Part shown: positions 19,224-33,011 of the stretch, piece after piece
Numbering within the stretch: the first letter of the stretch is position 1
How the letters are laid out: every line of letters starts with the position of its first letter
IMG/VR virus record: IMGVR_UViG_3300046777_001793
Span: 32,001-96,000 of that record
From: a virus
Length of the DNA stretch: 64,000 nucleotides
Direction: 5' to 3' (one strand)
Notes under the pieces: generated by a model
Databases searched by the model: none
Told to the model about the DNA's origin: nothing
The model's input: only the letters and a program-made list of their open reading frames with translations
Program-made: the position numbers and the translations under genes

Positions 19224-19575
19224 GGTGATACACTTTTAAATTCAATACAATTGTTCCCTCTGTTAAAATTGACAACTCACTATTTAATGTTATTGTCTTG
19301 TTTCCCATTCCACTTCTTACAACTAAATTGTCTTTGATGCATTTTACCATAAAATTTCTTGCAGTTTGCACATTTCCAAATATTCCTTCTGTAACAGTTT
19401 GCTCACAAAAATCAGAAAGAAACATACTTCCATACATTCCCAATAAAGCAAGGCAGTCCTGTTGAGCAGGACTTAACCTTATTTTATTTAGAAAACAATG
19501 CATGTTAATTTGATATTTAATAATATCAAGCATTGTCATTGGAACAATCTTATTGATCACTTTCGCTGTTGCCAT
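19201..19575 (-). CDS. putative winged-helix protein
   Basis: LSPAQQDCLALL...QTARNFMVKCIKDNLV pattern. Confidence 0.45.
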   Translation of the reverse strand: MATAKVINKIVPMTMLDIIKYQINMHCFLNKIRLSPAQQDCLALLGMYGSMFLSDFCEQTVTEGIFGNVQTARNFMVKCIKDNLVVRSGMGNKTITLNSELSILTEGTIVLNLKVYHHDTNQGK

Positions 19576-19792
19576 TTTCCTCTGGTTTTTCTTGTACTGA
19601 TAACTGTAACTGAATGAATTTCACTCTGTTTTCTAATTGTCTAAATTTAGCTTCTTCAATGTCTGCTTTTAAAGTTTCATACTTTTTTTGTGCTTCTAAA
19701 AAAGGTAATTGCTCTTTATAGAATTTAAGCATGTTTTCTTTATATGCTTTAATCTCTTCAGCTGTTGGTTCTTGGTTGGTGTTTTCTGACAT
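19550..19792 (-). CDS. small coiled-coil protein
   Basis: First gene after the TAnnTTTG element at 19820-19827. Confidence 0.55.
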   Translation of the reverse strand: MSENTNQEPTAEEIKAYKENMLKFYKEQLPFLEAQKKYETLKADIEEAKFRQLENRVKFIQLQLSVQEKPEENGNSESDQ

Positions 19793-21551: not shown

Positions 21552-22040
21552 TTACAATGTTTGATAATTTCTTAACTTACACCAATTAAACAAATCTTCA
21601 GGTGACATTTTGAAATAATCAGGAATCTCATAAACCCAAGCTACAAATTCAGAACAATACATTTTTTCTTCTTTATTTCCTGCTTCTTTCCAGTTACCTG
21701 TTAATAATTTCCAGGGTTGTCTAATTAATAGACTTTCTAAATCATAAGCAGTATGTCCAACTTTTGATAAAGCTCTTTTTGATATAACCTCACCATCTTC
21801 TTTAGTCAAAAGCGGATTTCTATTTATGATGTAAAAATACTTATATTTTTTTTGCCATTCTTCAAATGGTCTGACATTTACTCCGTCTTTTTGCGCATCA
21901 ATAATATAAGGTTGCCCCCATATTTCAATATACAATGCTGTATGAGAAACTTTAGATTTAGTAAAAAGTTTTATCAGTTTACTAATCAATCTGTTTCCAC
22001 TACAATGTAGTATATCTCCAGGTTTTAATATTGTTTCCAT
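21552..22040 (-). CDS. permuted papain-like amidase (YiiX/NlpC-P60 superfamily)
   Basis: LKPGDIL, SHTALY, AYD, YCSEFVA, SPEDL; His precedes Cys. Confidence 0.75.
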   Translation of the reverse strand: METILKPGDILHCSGNRLISKLIKLFTKSKVSHTALYIEIWGQPYIIDAQKDGVNVRPFEEWQKKYKYFYIINRNPLLTKEDGEVISKRALSKVGHTAYDLESLLIRQPWKLLTGNWKEAGNKEEKMYCSEFVAWVYEIPDYFKMSPEDLFNWCKLRNYQTL

Positions 22041-22041
22041 T

Positions 22042-22284
22042 TTATAATTCGTATAAATTTTTTATTTCACTACTTACACTTTCTAATTGATTAAATTTCT
22101 CAAATAATATTGGTGTCATTAATTCAATTCTTTGAGCTATTTGTGAATCTACATCTGATTTATTTTCTAAACTACAATTAGAAGCAATAAAATCTTCTAT
22201 TTCTGGATCACTTGGTCTTAAACTTAAATTTATAAAACCGTTTTCATCTATATAATGTGTTGAAGTTAATATAAATTTTTTCAT
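22042..22284 (-). CDS. hypothetical protein (possible fibre chaperone)
   Basis: Small ORF directly after the fibre-like gene. Confidence 0.45.
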   Translation of the reverse strand: MKKFILTSTHYIDENGFINLSLRPSDPEIEDFIASNCSLENKSDVDSQIAQRIELMTPILFEKFNQLESVSSEIKNLYEL

Positions 22285-22295
22285 GCATTTAAGTT

Positions 22296-23915
22296 TTAAA
22301 AGTTATAAACACCAAGAATTTTAACATCAAATCTTCCTGAAGAAGATACACCACCACCACCTGTACCCATAGATCTACCAGCTTGATAAGCAAGTAATGT
22401 TGAAGCATCTGGTAAGTTTGTAGTAATAGTTCCTTCAGCAATAGCTCCTGTTTCTCTATTAATTACAGAATATTTAACTTCAGATGAACCTGGAGCATTA
22501 TAAAACCTTACATAATACATAGTTGTTGAAACAGCTCCTGATGTTCTATTAGCAGGAAAACCAGAACCTAAATCAATTTTAGTTGCTGTTCCTGATGCAT
22601 CATTATGCATTATTTGCAAGTTGGCATCACCTGAATCATTTGCTAAAGCAATAATATTTGTTAATGCAGAAGGTTGTAAATTACTTATAGTACCTATAGC
22701 TAGGTTTGTTACTGATGAAGTTAATCCCCAAAAATTATGAGCACCTACTGCATAATTTGTATCTGCTATACCAAATTCACCTACAAATAAAAATCCTGCT
22801 GTGATTGACCATAATGCTGCTGATGTTCTCATACAACAATAGTTTCCTGTTCCAGTAACAGATGGCTCAAAACGCATTGTTATTTGTCTTGTCCTAAAGT
22901 TTGTAACAGCAACTGTGTTTGCACCTTGAGTACCTGAAAGGTTATTTGTGATACCACCTAATGTATCTATAGTTGTAGAGTTAGCTCTAAAAGTAACACC
23001 TCTAAAAACTTCATTACCTGTTAAATCAGGGATTAAACTTTGAGAACTTGCTGGTGCTATTGGAATATTTAAAGTATCATCAATTAATGTTGCTGCACCA
23101 GTTCCTTCAGTAGTAAGTGTAAGTAATGATGAAATTTTTGCATGTTTCCAAAGATTGTCTGCGGTATCTCTATAGAGTACACCTTTGTTAATATAAGTAG
23201 GTAATGATACATCATGTAATTCATCAAGTTCATAACCATTTTGAACTTTAACAAATATTTCACCGTTGTTTACATTTACTCTAGTTACAACACCAAGATA
23301 AACTAAATGTGCTGGAGCAACAGGTTTATTTGCTAAACCGTAAATTAAATTACCATCTATACCTAACCAAACCGGATCATTTACTTGAGCTAAAGAAGTG
23401 TCTAAACCTTCAAGTCTTCCTTCAGTAATAACTTTTCCAATTCCATTTAAAGCAAGGTCTTGAAAAAGTAAACCTAATGTTTTACTTGATGTTGCTTCAC
23501 TAGCATTACTAGCTTTAGCAACAATTACATTTGTTCCATCTGAACCAGATACATAAACAGCCTGACCTTTAGAAATTGCAACACCTGCTTTTACAGTTTG
23601 TTGGATTTTTTCTGAAGGTAATGTTTCAGGTTTATTTAAAATAAGTGCATCACCTGAAACTGCATTCCAATCTGATTGAACATTTGCTTCAGCTCCTTCT
23701 TGTATTCCAGTTAATTTAGTTTTTTCTGCTGCAGAAAATAAACCTGCGTTTGTACTGTCAGCTAATAAAATAGTTGCATCACTTCCTGAATCTGAAGTAA
23801 TAACTCCATTTGATATACCTGGAACAAATGCTAAGTTAGCACCACCCCCAGCACCACCAGAAGGTGCTTCATAATAGTCTAACTTTCCTGTATGTGGGTT
23901 GTACTTGTAAGGCAT
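22296..23915 (-). CDS. fibre/decoration-like structural protein
   Basis: NVQSDWN..GDALILNKP fibre repeat, ISKGQAVY capsid-cement-like domain, GYELDELHDV, beta-rich C-terminus. Confidence 0.6.
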   Translation of the reverse strand: MPYKYNPHTGKLDYYEAPSGGAGGGANLAFVPGISNGVITSDSGSDATILLADSTNAGLFSAAEKTKLTGIQEGAEANVQSDWNAVSGDALILNKPETLPSEKIQQTVKAGVAISKGQAVYVSGSDGTNVIVAKASNASEATSSKTLGLLFQDLALNGIGKVITEGRLEGLDTSLAQVNDPVWLGIDGNLIYGLANKPVAPAHLVYLGVVTRVNVNNGEIFVKVQNGYELDELHDVSLPTYINKGVLYRDTADNLWKHAKISSLLTLTTEGTGAATLIDDTLNIPIAPASSQSLIPDLTGNEVFRGVTFRANSTTIDTLGGITNNLSGTQGANTVAVTNFRTRQITMRFEPSVTGTGNYCCMRTSAALWSITAGFLFVGEFGIADTNYAVGAHNFWGLTSSVTNLAIGTISNLQPSALTNIIALANDSGDANLQIMHNDASGTATKIDLGSGFPANRTSGAVSTTMYYVRFYNAPGSSEVKYSVINRETGAIAEGTITTNLPDASTLLAYQAGRSMGTGGGGVSSSGRFDVKILGVYNF

Positions 23916-23917
23916 AA

Positions 23918-24163
23918 TTATTGAATTGTAATTTTTGTAACTCTTGATCCATCTACTAATGGATTTTCATATTCTATATTTTCAATTACAGAACCTTTTC
24001 TTGTATCAGCACAATAATGTTTAATTTGAGTAACATTAGTTGTTGTTCCACCATACGTAAATTCTCTAACGTATCCTGGTGAATTTTGTATTTCTATAAG
24101 CTTTGAGTTTCCTTTACCCAAAAGCATTAATAAATTTGTCTGAAATGATCTATCAAAAAACAT
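23918..24163 (-). CDS. hypothetical protein
   Basis: ORF leading the fibre gene. Confidence 0.5.
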   Translation of the reverse strand: MFFDRSFQTNLLMLLGKGNSKLIEIQNSPGYVREFTYGGTTTNVTQIKHYCADTRKGSVIENIEYENPLVDGSRVTKITIQ

Positions 24164-24209
24164 AATCTTTGTGTTTACTTAATAATATACAAAAAAATAT
24201 TGGAATAAA

Positions 24210-24240
24210 AAAACCCCTACCAAAGGTAAGGGCTTTTTTT
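24210..24240. terminator. hairpin terminator after groES
   Basis: CCCT-ACCAAAGGT-AAGGG stem flanked by A- and T-runs. Confidence 0.5.
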
Positions 24241-24521
24241 TAATAGATTGCAATCACATCAGATTCTTTGGCGACATAGTAAATTTTACCATTCATGTCA
24301 AAGGTATCACAGTAACTTAACTGCTTTGGTGTGATAAGGACTTTATCTCCTACTTTTACTTTCTCAACATCTACTCCTGTAAAAGCTACAGGTAATTCAG
24401 AGAATTTTTTTACAATCTCATCTTCAAGTTGTTTTTTTGCTTCTGGCAATAACTCAATTCCTGAAGGTCTTTCTTCAATCACAGGTCTTTCAATAATGAC
24501 CAATTTTCCTAAAAATTTCAT
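24240..24521 (-). CDS. groES: GroES/Cpn10-like co-chaperonin
   Basis: MKFLGKLVII, SGIELL mobile loop, VKVGDKVL, YYVAKESDVIAI. Confidence 0.8.
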   Translation of the reverse strand: MKFLGKLVIIERPVIEERPSGIELLPEAKKQLEDEIVKKFSELPVAFTGVDVEKVKVGDKVLITPKQLSYCDTFDMNGKIYYVAKESDVIAIY

Positions 24522-24524
24522 TTC

Positions 24525-24791
24525 TTAATATTTAAGAGTTAATACTTTAACTACACTCATTTGTGCATTTAACACTTCACCGATCGCATGATTATAAAGT
24601 GTATCTGCTAATGGAGAAGCACCCAGATTTTTTGCTCTGTACTCTTGTTCCAAAAGATCTGCTGCTTTAGCAAATAATATTTTTGCTTGTGCTACTTTAT
24701 CATCTGCTGAAGGATTAAAATTTAATCCTACCAATTGCTCTCCAAACGTTAGAGATCTTACTTCTACTTCCATTTTACCTTCTACTACCAT
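24525..24791 (-). CDS. Acb2-like helical-hairpin protein (putative cyclic-oligonucleotide sponge)
   Basis: TFGEQLVGLNFNPS.DDKV..AK..FA...AIGEVLNAQMSVVKVLT, the Acb2/Tad1 hairpin pattern. Confidence 0.55.
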   Translation of the reverse strand: MVVEGKMEVEVRSLTFGEQLVGLNFNPSADDKVAQAKILFAKAADLLEQEYRAKNLGASPLADTLYNHAIGEVLNAQMSVVKVLTLKY

Positions 24792-24792
24792 C

Positions 24793-24888
24793 TTACTTAG
24801 ATTTTGTGATTTTTGTTTTTACTATTACTAAATGCTGAAGCCATCCTTTTAAAGCTTCAATCTTTGCTTTGTTTCCTGTTTTACTCAT
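24793..24888 (-). CDS. 31 aa basic peptide
   Basis: MSKTGNKAKIEALKGWLQHLVIVKTKITKSK fills the gap with 1 nt spacing on each side. Confidence 0.5.
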   Translation of the reverse strand: MSKTGNKAKIEALKGWLQHLVIVKTKITKSK

Positions 24889-24889
24889 G

Positions 24890-25507
24890 TTATTTGATTT
24901 TTGATAAGTTACGTAATCTTTCCAAAACATCTTGGCCATTGTGGCCATCAAAAGGATATTTTGCTTTTTCTTCTACAGGTATTTGGAATAAATCCCAATC
25001 TTCTTCTTTGTAGTGATTGGTTATCATTCCATCTGGTAACATTGCTACTACAATAAACCATCCGCCACCAAAACATTCTTTTCCATCATGATGTTTCCAT
25101 GACTTATGAACATCATATTTGCAATGATTATATGGTTGCCCTGTGTTTTTCCATTTTGGATTCCACAATTTATTTGCAGCCCACTCATTGAACAATGCAG
25201 CATTGTACATTTTTCTGAAATCATACAACTCATTGTATGTATGGTATCCATCAGAAAATTCTCCAATCTCTGCTTCAGTTGCATAAGTCATTTCAAAGAT
25301 GTCTGGTTTGCATGCGTAAAACTCACCCTTTACCCCTTTTATAACATAATCTTCAAGACTTGCTCTCATGCTACCTTCCAATGTATGAATAAACAATGCA
25401 TCACCTTGGAACTCAATATCATTTCCTGCAAATGCTCTAATTTCATTTGCATTTAATCCTGTCCATTGAACAGCTTCTATTACTACTGGTTTCTTTGCGT
25501 ATTTCAT
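24890..25507 (-). CDS. two-domain fusion: Acb4-like (KKPVVIEA) domain plus WDGH-type domain
   Basis: Start reassigned to [15 protein letters not shown]; TLEG...[23 protein letters not shown], then [11 protein letters not shown]...HHDG...GWFIV...HY...WDLF...FDGH. Confidence 0.65.
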
Positions 25508-25508
25508 A

Positions 25509-25862
25509 CTACTTTTCATTTTTACCTTCAACTTGTCTTCTCTGTCTATCCTTAGTTCTTGCATCTTGCCAATGAATTGCTTCTTCAATCTTTGTGATTG
25601 ATAAAGCATTTTCTCTACAAGGAAAAGCTTCATTTAGACTTTGAAATAAACATTTAACATATTTCAACATGTCTAATGCTTGACAACCATTTACACCCAC
25701 TTCAGAAATAGGATCTGATTGAATTGTAAATTTCACTACTGGTGCAACACCTTTTACATCTTCTGCATTTTCAATTTGAATAAAATTTATTAAATGCATC
25801 TCTTGTGATGTGCTATCCATTTCTCTTTCAAGAAGATTTCTTGCTTTTTCTACGTGCCTCAT
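25509..25862 (-). CDS. tad1: Tad1-family anti-defence sponge protein
   Basis: [13 protein letters not shown]...[34 protein letters not shown] matches the Tad1 C-terminal signature (RENA.A.T..EEAL.W...R..DR..R.V.G). Confidence 0.8.
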
Positions 25863-26251
25863 TATTTATTTCTTTTTCTGTAAGACTTCAAGATTGCTAA
25901 GTAGTTGATTGCATCATCAATAGTATCATCTACCGCTTCATCTTTTACCATTCCCTCTTTATCTAACAATGTAGATATGCGTGACATTTTATCCATTAAT
26001 CTCACCAAAATTCCACGTTCAACCGGAACACCAGCAATTGTAGAATTTCTAAAGTTTGCATAAGGATCTTTGTTACTACCCCCATAGTCATGATTTTTTC
26101 TTACTGCTGTAGCAAGACAATCAGAAAAGGTTTTTTCCATGTCATGAAGTAATGGGTTTACTTCTAACTTCTTAAGAGTTACAGGTCCGCAAACAGCTCC
26201 AACCTTTGCTTCAATTTCTGCAAGTTCTTTTAACACTTTTTCTTCAGCCAT
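25862..26251 (-). CDS. DUF1599/Nmad1-like all-alpha nucleotide-associated protein
   Basis: KNHDYG...ANF...VRLMDKMSR...EAVDDTIDDAINYLAI. Confidence 0.7.
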   Translation of the reverse strand: MAEEKVLKELAEIEAKVGAVCGPVTLKKLEVNPLLHDMEKTFSDCLATAVRKNHDYGGSNKDPYANFRNSTIAGVPVERGILVRLMDKMSRISTLLDKEGMVKDEAVDDTIDDAINYLAILKSYRKRNK

Positions 26252-26253
26252 AT

Positions 26254-26685
26254 TTATTTTATTAATTGGTTACTTTTTAATATTTCACATACTTGCTCAA
26301 AAATCCATTCAGTCAAGTATGCTTCAAACTCTACTTCTACCTTATTCAGAAAGAAGATTCTTCTTATGTGTTGCATTATGTGTACAATCTCATGAACCAA
26401 TGTTTTTAAAATATTATCATCAATCTTTCTAATCACCAATGACAAATAATAATTACCTTCTTCAGTCTGATAATATTCTACATAAGCATCTGTGTAAATC
26501 TTTACATCATCATATCCATCAAATACCTCATTGACTAATTTATGCATATCCTTATCAAAATGTTTGCGTAAACTTTTCATATTTTTTACGCCACATATAA
26601 ACAAGAACTCTTGATTAATCAAAGGTATCTTGATAGACTCAACTATCTCATTTGATTTTGTAGAATTTCCCAAGGATGTTTGCAT
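26254..26685 (-). CDS. zincin-like metallopeptidase
   Basis: TLVHEIVH followed by EFEAYL. Confidence 0.6.
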   Translation of the reverse strand: MQTSLGNSTKSNEIVESIKIPLINQEFLFICGVKNMKSLRKHFDKDMHKLVNEVFDGYDDVKIYTDAYVEYYQTEEGNYYLSLVIRKIDDNILKTLVHEIVHIMQHIRRIFFLNKVEVEFEAYLTEWIFEQVCEILKSNQLIK

Positions 26686-27070
26686 TTAAAAATTCATCAC
26701 TCTCCAATACACCATAAGCAAATTGATATTTACACTCCATGTAAGTCAACTCTGTTGCAGAGAAACAGATATGTAACATATCACGCTTTAGCACAATACC
26801 ATCTTTATGGGCTTGTTTCAATATCTCATTACTACTGAAATAATTTTGATAAGCAGCTTTTTTCTGAATAGTGTATTTTTTCAAACGCTTGTCTGTTACA
26901 GCAGCCAATTCCCTTTTACCCATCTTCTTTTTTGTCTGTGAATAAAAGTTCTTCTTACCAATATATCTCACAGACTTTCCATCAACAATACCACTTATCT
27001 CATAGATAAATCCTACTGCATTATCTGGAATGTCACTATCCTTAAACTCTTTACCTTGATACAACCACAT
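26648..27070 (-). CDS. GIY-YIG family nuclease
   Basis: GFIYEI...RYIGKK, ELTYME, FLNANI. Confidence 0.7.
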   Translation of the reverse strand: MWLYQGKEFKDSDIPDNAVGFIYEISGIVDGKSVRYIGKKNFYSQTKKKMGKRELAAVTDKRLKKYTIQKKAAYQNYFSSNEILKQAHKDGIVLKRDMLHICFSATELTYMECKYQFAYGVLESDEFLNANILGKFYKIK

Positions 27071-27189
27071 AAATAAGAATTATTATAATTAATACTACTA
27101 TGAACAAAAAAGGAACAAGACATCCACCATGAACTCTACCCTCATAATCATCCCAATCATCCAATCCCTGTATATAAACCTCATTGTAT

Positions 27190-27435
27190 TTAAAATCTGT
27201 GTTTTGCTCTTCTGCCATAATTTAATGTTTGTTTACTAAATGCGTGTGTTGTACTAAAGTGATGTGCTGAAACAACAAAGTCATGTGGATTTTTGTATCT
27301 CTTTTCCACTCTTTGTCCAACTGCAACCTCTACAAACTTTGGAAAAAACTGATTAAGTTCTACTCCTATGCAATACGTTCCTATAAAAAGTTTCTTCTTG
27401 CACATATCACTAAATACAGTAATTGCTCTAATCAT
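27190..27435 (-). CDS. hypothetical protein
   Basis: Probable start MIRAITV coupled to upstream stop. Confidence 0.4.
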   Translation of the reverse strand: MIRAITVFSDMCKKKLFIGTYCIGVELNQFFPKFVEVAVGQRVEKRYKNPHDFVVSAHHFSTTHAFSKQTLNYGRRAKHRF

Positions 27436-27692
27436 CAGCTCCCACAATTTAAACAACCCTCATCATCATCTTCTTCCGGATGAGTTTCAATTCTAGGATT
27501 TAGAATTTTTTTCAACTCATAAATCTCCTGTTGTATATCTCCATCCTGGAAAATATCACCAGTCAATTGCGTTCTCAATTCCGCAATCTTTGCTTTGATT
27601 TCATTTTCTTCCATACTTTCTAGCTCTTTGTACTTTTTTAAACATTCTCTTACCTTCCTTTTCCATCTTGTGTTTCTTATACTCAAACTCAT
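27435..27692 (-). CDS. hypothetical protein with C-terminal CxxCGS
   Basis: Coiled coil, acidic stretch, then CLNCGS; start uncertain (27692 or 27614). Confidence 0.5.
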   Translation of the reverse strand: MSLSIRNTRWKRKVRECLKKYKELESMEENEIKAKIAELRTQLTGDIFQDGDIQQEIYELKKILNPRIETHPEEDDDEGCLNCGS

Positions 27693-27731
27693 TCATTGGA
27701 GCACATGCTGAAATAAAAAGAAACAATATCA

Positions 27732-28253
27732 TTACTCTATACATTCCTTCTTTTTAAATTTTTCAAACACATCAAACACCTTATTCTCAAAAACCTTTCT
27801 CTTTCTTGACAAAAATGGATTCAGCATATAACACACACGCACCTCACCATAAATCCTACCCTTAATCTGATATAACACCCCAGCAGAAACCAAACGTGTA
27901 ATCAACTTCATAAACATGCTCTTTGATGAAATCTCTAAATACTTTTGTAGAGATTCATTTGTATGAGGTATAGTATTATTAAATACAATGTTCAAAGGAG
28001 TCTTTGTAACAACACTCATCTTAATCACATTTGCAAGATCACTATTGTTCAACAACTTTGTTAATTCCAATAAAGCTTCAGTTTCTAATACAGCATAATC
28101 ATTAGAAGTAATCATACTCATACCAGTTTCCTTACTCACATTAACTCCTTCAGGAACTTCAGCCAATACCTTAACCTCACCTGTAACCTCATCTACATAA
28201 GATTCCAAATCTAACTCCACGTTACTCTTTAAGGACTTTACTTTAGCACTCAT
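27732..28253 (-). CDS. RepL-like (plasmid-type) winged-helix replication protein
   Basis: VDEVTGEV N-terminal motif, HTH LQKYLEISSKSMFMKLITRLVSAGVL, CYMLNPFL. Confidence 0.65.
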   Translation of the reverse strand: MSAKVKSLKSNVELDLESYVDEVTGEVKVLAEVPEGVNVSKETGMSMITSNDYAVLETEALLELTKLLNNSDLANVIKMSVVTKTPLNIVFNNTIPHTNESLQKYLEISSKSMFMKLITRLVSAGVLYQIKGRIYGEVRVCYMLNPFLSRKRKVFENKVFDVFEKFKKKECIE

Positions 28254-28282
28254 CTGTCATTTCATTTACAGGACAAATATAA

Positions 28283-28382
28283 CTAAAAATAACACTTTTG
28301 TGCTAAAAATAACACTTTATTTTTTACCCAGGTGCTAAAAATAACACCTGTGAGCCTTGTGAGGTGCTAAAAATAACACCTG
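28283..28382. repeat. four iteron-like repeats CTAAAAATAACAC
   Basis: Copies start at 28283, 28303, 28335, 28367; the last two are extended to AGGTG-CTAAAAATAA-CACCTG. Confidence 0.85.
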
Positions 28383-28807
28383 ATAAAAACCCCCACAACC
28401 CTTGAAAACATTGGGCTATCCCCCCATCCTAAGCAAAAACGTACTTATTCTTATTTAGGAGCACATGATGCTAACGCTATAAAGAGAAATTCATGTGTGT
28501 GGCGGAGAATGGGTATATTGAAAATTATGGATATAATGGTGTGTATGGGTCCTTCCATTATTTGCCCCCCGGGCAAACACAATGTCAGGTGTACCCCCTA
28601 GGCAAGCAGCAGGCACAGAGGTTATTGTTATAGCATAATGACATTAATTTTCTCCAGGGAAGAAGTTTGTGTGCCAGAGGAGAAGGGTGCTTGTCAAGAG
28701 AGTGCTTGGGAAGCAGAGCAAGAGAAGAGAGTGACACAGGAAGGAAGATGCAGGGCAAGGTCTTATTCTATATTAATGACCTCTCGGTCATTTTAAATTT
28801 TATAATT

Positions 28808-28990
28808 ATGAAAAATTTTTCAGTAAGAGAAATGATTATCATACTAAATGTTGTGGTAATCATTGCATTAGCAGGTTCATTGACTGCTTTATGCATTACA
28901 ACTAATGTTGTGTTTGTGTACACCTTTGTGTGCACAGCACCAGTTGCTATGCTTTGTGTTTTAATACTTGATAAGTATGAGAAACAATAA
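28808..28990 (+). CDS. small two-TM membrane protein
   Basis: Start reassigned to MKNFSVREM; two hydrophobic segments. Confidence 0.55.
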   Translation: MKNFSVREMIIILNVVVIIALAGSLTALCITTNVVFVYTFVCTAPVAMLCVLILDKYEKQ

Positions 28991-29282
28991 TTTGAAAAGG
29001 GGAGCTTCCGTAGGGAAGTTCTACCTTTACACTATGGTTATTATAACCATAGTATTAATATTTATAATGAGTTCTTGTTCTAAAGGAACATACTATAAGT
29101 ATGCCTACATAGATTGTAGGAAACAAGATGTGGTTACAACTCATTTGATTCCAGTTAACCACACCTTATCTGATGCAGAGATTAACCAAAGACTCTCTGT
29201 ATATAGAGCTGAAAGAAACAGTTATGTCCTTATGGATACAATTGTATTGGAAACAGCTTCTACATTATTTATGTTAAAATAA
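28977..29282 (+). CDS. putative lipoprotein
   Basis: Hydrophobic helix ending in lipobox-like IMSSC. Confidence 0.55.
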   Translation: MRNNNLKRGASVGKFYLYTMVIITIVLIFIMSSCSKGTYYKYAYIDCRKQDVVTTHLIPVNHTLSDAEINQRLSVYRAERNSYVLMDTIVLETASTLFMLK

Positions 29283-29287
29283 TTATT

Positions 29288-29455
29288 ATGAAAAAGAAAA
29301 TAGAAAAGGCACTATTATATATAGTGTCAATCATACTAGTGCTTGTTGGATTAACAGGCACTATGTTACACAACCAACTAATTGGTTGTGTTAGTTTATT
29401 AATGTTCATTGCAGGAATAATTGCCTTTATAGGCACAATGAACAAGTATGAGTAA
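29288..29455 (+). CDS. small two-TM membrane protein (55 aa)
   Basis: MKKKIEKALLYIVSIILVLVGLTGTMLHNQLIGCVSLLMFIAGIIAFIGTMNKYE; below track cutoff. Confidence 0.6.
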   Translation: MKKKIEKALLYIVSIILVLVGLTGTMLHNQLIGCVSLLMFIAGIIAFIGTMNKYE

Positions 29456-29464
29456 GACATTCTT

Positions 29465-29497
29465 GACCACGCATTCTACTACGGTAGGTGTGTGGTC
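29465..29497 (+). terminator. hairpin closing the membrane-gene trio
   Basis: GACCAC...CTAC-TACG-GTAG...GTGGTC with a cUACGg loop; weak U-tract. Confidence 0.45.
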
Positions 29498-29527
29498 TTA
29501 CGCTTTAGGACAAACGTGTAACCTTTA

Positions 29528-30214
29528 ATTCTATATCAATTACCTTTGGTAATTTTCCCAGTGCGTTACATTCACACCCATTGATAGGCTACGCCTATCA
29601 TCACCCACATCAAAGACAAGGCACACCAACAAAGAGATTACTATCATCAGCACCCAATGTAACACAGCAATGCACCGGCCTTCGGCCTATGCCTATCGGC
29701 ATCAACAATGTAATGTAATCTTACATTCTATACCAATTACCTTCGGTAATTACTTATTACAAAAAGTCCTGTTGCTGATTAACTGAACAAATGATGTTTC
29801 AGCAACAGGCATTATGTCGTTGTAGGTGTATTATTATAACCTTCTGTTTGCAGTTTTAGAATAAAACTGTTGTTTGTATGTTAGGCCTAAACATTCACCA
29901 CCAATACCATTAAGCGTATTGGGTATTCTCATTCAAGCAGATTGTATAAAGCAATGTTAAAAGGGTTGCAACCTTATGAGAATACAACAACTATGGGGGA
30001 AAGTCCTTTAAGGATACCAATTATTACCGTCTAACATTTGGTAATAACGGTGCGTAAAGCCATAGCGTGAATTAGAGATAGCCCTGATTATAGGGTGTTT
30101 GAGAATGAGTGACCAAGGTTAGTGGTTAGAGCATTTGGCTAATTAAGTGTCAACGAGATAGACACTATTTTTTCCTCACAACCTTTCATTCTAAACCAAC
30201 TACCTTCGGTAGTT
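29528..30214 (+). promoter_or_regulatory. three copies of a conserved triloop-hairpin element (candidate virion-RNAP promoters)
   Basis: ATTCTAwAyC-AAyTACC-TTy-GGTArTT at 29528-29554, 29725-29751 and 30188-30214; compensatory base pair in copy 3. Confidence 0.6.
29760..30173 (+). ncRNA. candidate ~410 nt structured non-coding RNA
   Basis: No ORF of 60 aa or more; many perfect stems; starts after hairpin copy 2 and ends at a terminator (30146-30173). Confidence 0.5.
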
Positions 30215-30339
30215 CTTACGCTACGCGTCTTATGCTTTTGCATATATTCCTAAAATTTGGTTAGGGAATTAAAATAATTAACCAGCATTTATTAATTTTT
30301 AGAAACCTTGTGGTGTATAGGTCAACCCAATCTACGGTA

Positions 30340-31014
30340 ATGGAAACTTTAAACACATTAACCGCAAAAAAAGAGTTCATTAAAAACAATTTGGACAAAT
30401 TGTCTGATGAAACTCGCCCATCTGCATCTCAAATTAATGCTTTCAAGGCTGGTGACACAAACCACGTTGATGCTTTAGTAGAAGAGATTAACTCATTTGT
30501 TGCACCTGCAAATGATGTTATAGCAGATGAAACTGTTGAAAAAGTTGATACACTTGTGTATGAAACATTAACAACAGAATCAGGTGCAAGTGTTGAAGTT
30601 GTTTGGTTGCCATTCCTTAAATATGGAATGCGACAAGACAAACAAACACGCAAGGTTAGAACTAATTACCAATTTGGTTTTGGCTCTAACATAGTAACCA
30701 TTCAAAACTCTTTACTTGACCCAATCAAGAAGAGCATTGAAGTAGGTGCAATGTTCCCTATCAAGGTTGAAACTATTCAGCCTATTGTAGCAGAACGCAC
30801 TTATGGTTACGGTAAACAAGTATTCTCCGCAGGTATTGCTGAATTTGCTTGTGAGTTGTTGCTTGATGCACGTGCAGAGAAAATGGAAGAGTTGGAAGAA
30901 CTTTCTCAATTATCTGCGGAAGCACAAGAGATGGTTATTAAAGCAACCGCTTTAAGCCAAGCAGAGCAATACTTATTGAAGAAAGGTATTAAGTTACCTT
31001 CATCAATGAAATAG
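30340..31014 (+). CDS. hypothetical early protein
   Basis: ATG 30340 (METLNTL); stands alone between hairpin copy 3 and a hairpin at 31022-31042. Confidence 0.7.
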   Translation: METLNTLTAKKEFIKNNLDKLSDETRPSASQINAFKAGDTNHVDALVEEINSFVAPANDVIADETVEKVDTLVYETLTTESGASVEVVWLPFLKYGMRQDKQTRKVRTNYQFGFGSNIVTIQNSLLDPIKKSIEVGAMFPIKVETIQPIVAERTYGYGKQVFSAGIAEFACELLLDARAEKMEELEELSQLSAEAQEMVIKATALSQAEQYLLKKGIKLPSSMK

Positions 31015-31751: not shown

Positions 31752-32087
31752 ATGGCAATAAGACAGTTTATTACAGGCTTCAAGACCTTTGTAGTATTGA
31801 CTACTTGTATGTTAGCAATGCAGAACTTATACACAACAATACAGTATGGTAGGCTTAATGCTTACTATGACTTTGATGTTATAGATTGGTCTTTAATGAC
31901 TATATGTGTTCTCTTTAACTTATCTATTAGTGTTATTGATGCTATAACAACCACAGAAACGTGTATAATACAAACAGATACAGACACTTTATCATATCTG
32001 GAGAAAACATTACCATTCATACCAGATGGAGATTTTAAACAAGAGATTACAGAGCATATAGAAAACATATATGTAGAGAAGTATTAA
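31752..32087 (+). CDS. two-TM membrane protein
   Basis: Two hydrophobic segments. Confidence 0.55.
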   Translation: MAIRQFITGFKTFVVLTTCMLAMQNLYTTIQYGRLNAYYDFDVIDWSLMTICVLFNLSISVIDAITTTETCIIQTDTDTLSYLEKTLPFIPDGDFKQEITEHIENIYVEKY

Positions 32088-32789: not shown

Positions 32790-32879
32790 GGTGGTATGGC
32801 GGAATTGGTAGACGTATTAACTCTTTAAGATGATTTCAACAGGAGAAAAGATATACAGGTTCAAGTCCTGTTGCCACCT
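32790..32879 (+). tRNA. aberrant class II tRNA-like gene (Leu-type D arm, uncertain anticodon)
   Basis: Acceptor GGTGGTA/TGCCACC, D arm TGGCGGAATTGGTAGACG, T arm ACAGG-TTCAAGT-CCTGT; anticodon arm imperfect. Confidence 0.55.
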
Positions 32880-33011
32880 CATTTTCCCCTGCAATAAGTG
32901 GATCGGAGTGAATAATCAGGTAACAACTCCCCTCAAACGGTATGAGAGAATGTAAGGCTAAACAATAGTCTGATAACCGGAAAATAGTGACAGCCAGGAA
33001 AGACTGGTAAC

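Follow-up and report, generated by a model that had tools for sequence, protein, structure and literature searches.

Does a tightly packed run of five small genes in a crAss-related phage work as a counter-defence island, and which of its products would take part? The run lies at positions 24,525 to 26,251 of the window, by which we mean the whole stretch of 64,000 nucleotides (nt) analysed here (positions 32,001 to 96,000 of IMG/VR virus record IMGVR_UViG_3300046777_001793). It consists of five minus-strand open reading frames (ORFs) of 129, 117, 205, 31 and 88 amino acids (aa), designated P0001 to P0005, which are joined by a 1-nt overlap and then by three 1-nt gaps (Table 1). An earlier first-pass annotation had described five genes with gaps of 0-1 nt, a layout that the ORF list bears out (-1 to +1 nt, all on the minus strand), and had interpreted them as a multi-sponge operon directed against two nucleotide-signalling defences, Thoeris and the cyclic oligonucleotide-based antiphage signalling system (CBASS). 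What survives of that interpretation is a compact counter-defence locus, carried by a Tad1 gene and by an exchange slot that also accepts Tad2; its presumed Acb4 member does not. We consider it probable that the stretch is a real counter-defence island and that, within a run of leftward genes in a crAss-related phage of 120.5 kb, it would be a variable, accessory portion.

The 117-aa protein P0002 offers the firmest starting point. Tad1 is a hexamer (a trimer of dimers) with an N-terminal beta-sheet and a C-terminal two-helix hairpin, and Tad1 homologues sequester the Thoeris signal glycocyclic ADP-ribose (gcADPR) as well as the cyclic tri- and dinucleotides of CBASS. Compared with the PDB sequences by phmmer, P0002 matched CmTad1 (8kbb_A, E 4e-12, query residues 37-116) and six more chains, five of them Tad1 (E 3.7e-6 to 4.7e-6) and one gp184 (8y6v_I, E 2.9e-4); the CbTad1 chains matched were 7uav at E 3.8e-6 and 8kbg/8kbh at about 4e-6. 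It also matched phrog_2428 (E 3.8e-20), and 60 related loci were found in viral contigs. The pocket of CbTad1 for gcADPR and for the cyclic dinucleotide 2'3'-cGAMP is described by Li et al. (10.1101/2023.11.15.567273) as F82, N92, R109 and R113, and the same source gives CbTad1 R90/T97, equivalent to CmTad1 R88/T95, as cyclic-trinucleotide contacts and CmTad1 W103 as an interface tryptophan. When the phmmer alignment is combined with that description, using an offset of 10 residues, deduced from motifs, to convert the paper's numbering to that of the PDB chain, the four pocket residues fall on L76, N85, R102 and R106 of P0002, three of them identical and the fourth hydrophobic, while the trinucleotide contacts fall on R83 and T90 and the hexamer-interface tryptophan on W98. 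All four pocket positions of P0002 are invariant in 25 relatives. Since the pocket residues are conserved relative to homologues whose function has been shown, P0002 would be expected to soak up gcADPR and the cyclic tri- and dinucleotides of CBASS, and on the strength of these alignments it is very likely a Tad1 sponge. The first-pass annotation had made the same call and had considered it strong, and both the match to 8kbb_A and the retained ligand contacts agree with it.

P0002 resembles the known Tad1 structures (CmTad1, 8KBB; CbTad1, 7UAV and 8KBE-8KBH) in its homology over residues 37-116, in the preserved C-terminal hairpin motif and in keeping N85, R102, R106, R83 and T90, at a length of 117 aa as against 123-138 aa. 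It differs from them in several respects: its first 36 residues have no alignment, leucine replaces F82 of CbTad1, and the CmTad1 interface residues Q98, M102 and K106 become E93, H97 and A101. Moreover, it comes from a crAss-related lineage that probably infects Bacteroidota, and not from a Bacillus or Clostridium phage. Against PF24729, the Acb2/Tad1 hairpin family, P0002 scored 19.6-20 bits, below the cut-off of 27. When the Tad1 family was compared with T4-type Acb2 by hhalign, the sole alignment joined P0002 residues 33-44 to residues 2-13 of Vs.4 (42% identity over 12 columns, 4% probability). This short N-terminal motif, an acidic pair followed by a hydrophobic residue, K, G and then P, may be a shared pocket element or a product of chance.

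The best single argument for a counter-defence role comes from the position that Tad1 occupies. Three contigs (L062-L064) have the gene order of the window in common: SegE, the DUF1599-like gene, the 205-aa gene, the 31-aa peptide gene, the hairpin gene, GroES, an 81-aa gene and the tail fibre gene. Between the DUF1599-like gene and the 205-aa gene the window carries Tad1; in L062 and L063 this slot is empty and the two genes abut, and in L064 it holds a 95-aa Tad2-like ORF (PF11195, E 3.4e-22, 79.2 bits). Because two unrelated anti-Thoeris sponges alternate at one position, we regard the slot as a counter-defence (anti-Thoeris) hot spot and the Tad1 gene as a mobile cassette within it, and the Tad2 of L064, standing exactly where Tad1 stands in the window, is independent evidence for an anti-Thoeris slot. 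A Tad1 that is 95% identical to P0002 occurs in L001 in an unrelated neighbourhood, between a 257-aa and a 116-aa gene. Tad1 lies between the hairpin gene and GroES in L002 and L003, and it follows the hairpin gene in L027. The mobile SegE endonuclease beside the variable slot may help cassettes to exchange. Its gene overlaps the next one by 38 nt and is syntenic in L009, L063 and L064.

The 88-aa protein P0005 had been described as an Acb2-like hairpin. The decisive step in placing it runs through intermediate homologues. By tblastn, P0005 has homologues in six cultured-phage records representing four phages; those of Pasteurella phage Pmp11 (37.9% identity, E 3e-5) and phage DSL-LC05 (36.3% identity, E 6e-6) score 42 and 39.9 bits against PF24729 at the same coordinates, above the cut-off of 27, and the homologue in Providencia phage PS3 scores 22.7 bits. 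Because the Pmp11 and DSL-LC05 proteins pass the cut-off, P0005 can with good confidence be assigned to the Acb2/Tad1-hairpin superfamily as a divergent member of Acb2-like build. Membership in the superfamily is supported only through these intermediates, and P0005 itself gave no direct PF24729 match. Sub-threshold PF24729 matches occur in 11 of 42 and in 14 of 150 members of the hairpin family (best E 9.9e-5), and PF24729 is present on 13%, 16% and 88% of the members of the Atlas clusters nearest to P0005. The family is large: in a profile search, 1,087 cluster representatives reached E ≤ 1e-3 and 394 reached E ≤ 1e-10. The AlphaFold2 (AF2) model of P0005 (predicted local distance difference test score, pLDDT, 90.4) has a short helix at residues 16-21 and long helices at 31-53 and 60-84. 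In BFVD, a collection of predicted viral structures, the two best matches of this model bear the name Acb2/Tad1 hairpin protein (E 1.4e-3 and 5.8e-3, each with probability 1.00), and in the VIA structure search the model matched T4 Vs.4 (7uq2_A) at Z 7.2, the root-mean-square deviation (rmsd) being 2.6 over 61 residues, in fifth place among 48,161 chains, and 8H2X at Z 6.1.

Acb2 itself (T4 Vs.4, 7UQ2; PaMx33/PaP2, 8H2J/8H2X; PF24729) is a hexamer whose nucleotide pockets lie between subunits. Set beside its protomer, the modelled P0005 is alike in its size of about 80-90 aa and in having two long antiparallel helices after a short N-terminal segment, and its homologues at 36-38% identity belong to the same Pfam family. 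It is unlike Acb2 in that the hairpin family has an invariant N-terminal motif of its own (F16, G17 and G22, with N26 and P27 nearly invariant) and often comes as a pair or a fusion with a beta domain discussed below. Acb2 relatives can bind 3'-cyclic ADP-ribose (3'cADPR) instead of CBASS signals, according to section 5 of Hadary et al. (PMC12393519), so that the target of the hairpin protein need not be a CBASS signal. In the mechanism that we propose, P0005 would most likely be an oligomeric sponge for some nucleotide signal, although whether it acts as a sponge at all is an evenly balanced call. One contig, L061 (the contig of L078), carries two hairpin genes: a second, very divergent 88-aa paralogue (L061:3112-3375; local hidden Markov model, HMM, E 3e-9) lies just upstream of the homologue of the 205-aa gene, and the peptide gene lies downstream of the main hairpin gene. 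An ORF of 113 aa with an HExxE motif, similar to the HExxH motif of the protein encoded directly upstream of the island, precedes the second hairpin-like gene there.

The 205-aa protein P0003 had been annotated as a fusion of an Acb4-like domain with WDGH, and only the second half of that description is retained. WDGH (PF25311) is matched at E 7e-33 and 113.3 bits, against a cut-off of 27, over residues 82-200 and profile positions 1-96 of 97, and all 38 homologues of P0003 match it too. The N-terminal beta domain (residues 1-80) is not Acb4. The Acb4 family PF13876, which gave 34.9 bits with the 96-aa SPO1 gp1.3 as a positive control, matched neither P0003 nor residues 1-80 alone, none of the 38 homologues and, at E ≤ 10, nothing in the whole 120.5-kb genome. 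In SPO1 the two families are represented by separate genes: the homologue of the beta domain is gp34.82 (129488-129766, E 5e-15, 51% identity), Acb4 is gp1.3 (19399-19689), and the two are 110 kb apart. An hhalign comparison of the beta domain with gp1.3 gave a probability of 0.27%. The predicted topology is different as well, since Acb4 is described in section 7 of 10.1101/2024.12.30.630793 as having three helices at the N-terminus, three strands and two helices at the C-terminus, whereas the AF2 model of residues 1-80 runs strand, helix, five strands, helix (strand 11-14, helix 20-30, strands 31-34, 37-42, 45-49, 54-57 and 63-66, helix 68-74). In a VIA search with P0003, the Acb4 structure 9E4W was not among the best 50 matches, its place in the library being unchecked. 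What the beta domain does share with Acb4 is its behaviour as a small phage domain fused to sponges; section 5 of Tal et al. (10.1101/2025.07.12.664507) describes Acb4 as often fused to Tad2 and other sponge domains.

In its own right the beta domain matches phrog_419 (E 6.3e-31), and it has no Pfam match when scanned alone. PGDYG (PF14083) was matched weakly by four of the 38 homologues (best E 0.037) and by the protein P0257 (E 0.016), and was not matched in the 120.5-kb genome. The model over residues 5-75 could be superposed in VIA on residues 16-87 of the phage L decoration protein Dec, which has an OB domain (6e3c; Z 3.2, rmsd 3.6, 57 aligned residues), and hhalign aligned residues 47-78 with Dec 58-89 in the same register, but at 0.62% probability (E 0.093). 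Hadary et al. state in section 10 of their Methods (PMC12393519) that sponge proteins also carrying a 'PDB 6E3C' domain were removed. From these weak matches we suspect that they were dealing with the beta domain and that hairpin-family proteins are part of their Acb2 set. The beta domain is found in 790 cultured-phage records, SPO1 and SBSphiJ1 among them. In SPO1 (NC_011421), Tad2 lies at 127133-127384 (PF11195, 84.8 bits) and gp34.82 follows 2.1 kb downstream on the same strand, in the gp34.x block.

No solved fold was found for either domain of P0003 (AF2 pLDDT 88.7): its sequence, alone and as a profile, matched no PDB sequence, Foldseek found no PDB structure at E ≤ 0.001, and VIA found none of 48,161 chains at Z ≥ 5 (best Z 3.9). 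The WDGH domain has many invariant His, Asp and Cys positions (H89, H134, H139, C145, H165, D187, H189), which would suit an enzyme. It has more than 7,000 detectable relatives and occurs in 108 cultured-phage records, among them those of Bacillus, P22-like Salmonella and Lactococcus phages. WDGH is present in 33 Salmonella phage records and, in phage L (AY795968: 7360-7920), in Orf186, which is flanked by the coat protein gene and gene 4. A literature search, which did not extend to supplementary tables, found no paper that names WDGH, PF25311, PGDYG or PF14083 in a counter-defence context.

The fusions in which these domains recur give P0003 its connection to immune signalling. The beta domain and the hairpin are joined in one chain in P0257 and P0355, WDGH and the hairpin in P0288, and the beta domain, WDGH and Tad2 in a single protein in P0209 and P0237. 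In phage csAssE-Sib, WOZ57315.1 combines WDGH with Tad2 behind an unrelated N-terminus; we had considered it as a further triple fusion and rejected it, its first 68 residues having no alignment to the beta domain. PF21825 (Sequestin) is found on one of 150 representatives of the hairpin family (E 2.8e-17), and was not found among 19 long members scanned singly. Other partners of the hairpin, each on one of the 150 representatives, are a Cys-rich DUF5522 (E 1.2e-16) and RyR (E 6.5e-12); it is also fused to a methyltransferase-like region with weak matches only and to an unassigned 80-aa N-terminal domain (the fusions to other domains are L069:3821-4225, L066:3755-4246, P0268 and P0339). Islands of sponge genes and sponge fusions have already been described, and Tal et al. 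report in section 5 that Sequestin was discovered through its fusions to known sponges (10.1101/2025.07.12.664507). Our observations are like theirs in that uncharacterised domains recur in fusion with sponges, including PF21825 on the hairpin and WDGH with Tad2; they are unlike them in that WDGH and the PGDYG-like domain are not named in sections 5, 7 and 8 or in the fusion passages of that paper.

Because fusions in other phages join WDGH and the beta domain with each other, with the hairpin family and with Tad2, we propose that P0003 would act on immune signalling, by binding or by cleaving a signal. That WDGH or the beta domain acts on immune signals is conceivable, yet we would put it at somewhat less than an even chance. 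A broader proposal is more tentative still and, on balance, rather unlikely as a whole: that WDGH is a new family of immune-signal inhibitors, either a His-dependent enzyme or a new sponge fold, with the beta domain as its capture or oligomerisation partner; that the beta domain and the hairpin, adjacent or fused, make an undescribed two-part sponge; and that the whole is a multi-signal cassette upstream of GroES.

The genomic company of the hairpin gene was surveyed in the loci of the best 80 of 259 relatives of the hairpin family (L078-L157), which were scanned with local HMMs at E ≤ 1e-3. The beta domain is present in 38 of the 80, mostly encoded by a gene of its own (83-88 aa) that is 0-20 nt away from the hairpin gene, to one side or the other, and such a stand-alone gene abuts the hairpin gene in nine of the 32 clusters formed at 80% identity. 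WDGH occurs in two loci, the peptide in one and the DUF1599-like gene in none. The hairpin gene lies beside Tad1 in L002, L003, L021 and L027/28, and beside Tad2 in L095 and L114/115. Chaperonin genes are common in the 80 loci, with 63 GroES-like and 12 GroEL-like ORFs; the hairpin gene is followed by a GroES-like gene, usually at 3-10 nt, or by a GroEL-like gene at 8-10 nt, and the hairpin-then-GroES order is shared by the window, L062-L064, L067 and L068. A Pfam census of 112 other neighbouring ORFs around the 32 cluster representatives, which left out ORFs matched by the local HMMs, on the opposite strand, shorter than 55 aa or more than 800 nt away, found Cpn60 to be the commonest family (six ORFs), followed by Thy1, Cpn10, DUF3310, SNase and PDDEXK with two each. 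Since only two of the 112 ORFs reach Cpn10 at E ≤ 1e-3, most of the GroES-like neighbours would represent a diverged family of phage co-chaperonins.

Several of these results, together with others on the hairpin protein, weigh against reading the stretch as a counter-defence island. Tad1 (two loci) or Tad2 (three) lies within only five of the 80 loci and two of the 32 clusters, 54 loci and 16 clusters have a chaperonin gene no more than 300 nt from the hairpin gene, a stronger linkage than that to sponges, and the census brought no further sponge family to light. The 80 loci are also a narrow sample, collapsing to four clusters at 65% identity. Some of the fusions may be gene-calling read-throughs in metagenomic proteins. 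P0005 itself, unlike Acb2, has no direct HMM or profile match: no Pfam family was hit at E ≤ 1, nothing was found in PHROGs or among PDB sequences, and a 42-member profile of its family did not find Acb2 among PDB sequences. The PaMx33 ligand contacts Y11, L14 and P90, which are named in section 5 of PMC12393519, did not align onto it. By hhalign the hairpin family reached 0.8% probability against 32 T4-type Acb2 sequences, 0.1% against T4 Vs.4 alone and 0.2% against the Tad1 family, negatives that say little because the control comparison of Tad1 with Acb2 also failed (4%). The fold is a common one, and because 764 of the 48,161 chains reach Z ≥ 5, with a top Z of 8.0 and Vs.4 tied with unrelated hairpins, the fold match alone proves nothing about kinship with Acb2; Foldseek with the hairpin model found no PDB match at E ≤ 0.001. 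Finally, all functions given here to the island are inferred.

The chaperonin linkage could point to a different biology, in which only Tad1 (or Tad2) serves counter-defence, as a mobile cassette in a conserved block, and the beta-domain/WDGH protein, the peptide and the hairpin protein serve the chaperonin genes; they might be co-factors, regulators or client-specific adaptors, for instance, where virion proteins fold with the help of GroES/GroEL. Besides the synteny and the prominence of Cpn60 in the census, this explanation can draw on the presence of the conserved genes with or without Tad1 or Tad2, and on the fact that a two-helix hairpin is also a common chaperone element and the fold match to Acb2 is not specific. 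It must, however, account for the homologues that pass the PF24729 cut-off, for fusion partners that are sponges (Tad2 and Sequestin) rather than chaperonins, and for the repeated insertion of Tad1 and Tad2 right beside the conserved genes. It also has to explain loci in which the hairpin gene has other company: the homologue in PS3, a T7-like phage, has internal virion protein genes on both sides and that in Pmp11 is flanked by lysis and terminase genes, and in neither do the genes annotated within 2.5 kb include a GroES. The synteny, in turn, could be explained by shared ancestry, because the 80 loci are phylogenetically narrow. Given the narrow sample, the two phages whose hairpin genes have no annotated GroES nearby and the identity of the fusion partners, we rank the chaperonin explanation lower than a counter-defence island and think it unlikely.

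For the two remaining genes, nothing but adjacency provides a link to defence. P0001, which had been annotated as DUF1599/Nmad1-like, does not reach the cut-off for PF07659 (E 0.0021, 18.8 bits against 25). It matches phrog_1485 (E 2.2e-14), PF07659 is found on six of 120 homologues among the matches listed, and the nearest Atlas cluster (score 0.95) has PF07659 on 57% of its members; no PDB match was obtained by sequence or by profile. The earlier label can be kept only in the form of a weakly supported diverged relative of DUF1599, which has homologues in the close syntenic kin L062-L064. A part for it in defence evasion seems improbable. The 31-aa peptide gene of the earlier annotation is a real conserved element, in that 11 of its 31 columns are invariant, all within the first 16 residues, in six sequences from different contigs. 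P0004 has no family match in Pfam or PHROGs. It lies beside the hairpin gene in L002, L003 and L061-L064, upstream of it in five of these and downstream in L061. In the proposed island both genes would simply travel with the conserved part of the cluster.

The DUF1599-like gene raises a second alternative, that it and the WDGH protein act on nucleotides or DNA for the metabolism of the phage itself, such as base modification or clean-up of the nucleotide pool, with Tad1 nearby only incidentally. Pfam describes PF07659 as 'Nucleotide modification associated domain 1', phrog_4159, which the beta domain matches at E 1e-9, is annotated as a nucleotide pyrophosphohydrolase, the invariant WDGH positions fit an enzyme, and the DUF1599-like gene is restricted to the closest kin and absent from the 80 hairpin loci. 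On the other side, WDGH has Tad2 and the hairpin family as fusion partners, it is a small accessory gene in very different phages, and no DNA-modification enzyme was identified in the neighbouring genes that were scanned. We regard this metabolic explanation as quite improbable, and a counter-defence island is still the reading that we prefer.

Close packing of genes continues past the island on both sides, with 2 nt to the upstream 143-aa gene and 3 nt to the downstream GroES-like gene. The GroES-like protein matches Cpn10 at E 2.9e-5 and 24.5 bits, against a cut-off of 21.1; its gene is followed by the 81-aa gene and then by a 539-aa gene that is taken, from its own sequence, to encode the tail fibre. 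The weak Pfam matches of the 143-aa HExxH protein, encoded directly upstream of the island, are to putative metallopeptidase families. PADLOC gave no matches for the five island proteins, as expected from a library of defence systems. When positions 24000-27100 were compared at the DNA level with phages, only short patches were found, and no record covered at least 80% of the query. A scan for promoters and terminators over 22000-30500 returned 24 promoter-like sites against 40.2 expected, which is uninformative; the hosts probably use other promoter types. The sole tRNA in the window is a tRNA-Lys (anticodon TTT) at 32790-32880, and between the diverging leftward and rightward gene runs, at about 28-32 kb, the GC skew changes sign.

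Table 1. Genes and domains of the island and of its flanks, with positions in the window and the evidence for each assignment
Feature	Position	Strand	Evidence
SegE-type GIY-YIG homing endonuclease (flank)	26648-27070	-	SegE_GIY-YIG, E 1.3e-20
HExxH-motif protein, 143 aa (flank)	26254-26685	-	phrog_1365, E 2e-8; weak Pfam matches
Putative DUF1599/Nmad1-like protein P0001, 129 aa	25862-26251	-	PF07659 below cut-off; phrog_1485
Predicted Tad1-family sponge P0002, 117 aa	25509-25862	-	PDB match to 8kbb_A
P0003, whole gene, 205 aa	24890-25507	-	start at ATG 1 nt past the preceding stop
P0003 residues 1-80, beta-rich PGDYG/Dec-like domain	25268-25507	-	phrog_419
P0003 residues 82-205 and stop codon, His-rich WDGH domain (PF25311)	24890-25264	-	PF25311, 113.3 bits
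Conserved peptide P0004, 31 aa	24793-24888	-	start and stop coupled to the neighbouring genes
Helical-hairpin protein P0005, 88 aa, probable divergent PF24729 relative	24525-24791	-	intermediate homologues; AF2 model
GroES-like co-chaperonin, 93 aa (flank)	24240-24521	-	Cpn10 and phrog_3188

The phage itself is recorded as 120,528 bp with direct terminal repeats. Its portal and head proteins match PHROGs, and its large terminase is about 25% identical to the terminases of crAss-like, Bacteroides and Flavobacterium phages (126 records). Because the terminase identity is only about 25%, crAss-related would be a fair description of the phage and close crAss relative would not; the crAss-like label given before can be kept in the first sense. 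The phage probably infects Bacteroidota.

Sponges of the Tad1 and Acb2 types are already known to be widespread, and the firm parts of this analysis are ordinary in that respect: the Tad1 of this phage adds a new member to a known family, and the hairpin gene appears to be a divergent member of a known superfamily. What makes the locus valuable is the Tad1/Tad2 slot, together with the candidate families to which it points. Syntenic phages that have Tad1, Tad2 or nothing in one slot amount to a natural experiment, and they mark the locus as a counter-defence hot spot in a crAss-related lineage, a group with hosts that are difficult to work with. In addition, the network of fusions and adjacencies connects validated sponges with two phage domains that are very common and uncharacterised. 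The identity of one of them, the beta domain, is corrected here, since it is not Acb4. Both WDGH and the beta domain occur in tractable model phages, as SPO1 gp34.82, in SBSphiJ1 and as Orf186 of phage L and the P22-like phages. If WDGH does bind or cleave an immune nucleotide, it would represent a large new family of inhibitors.

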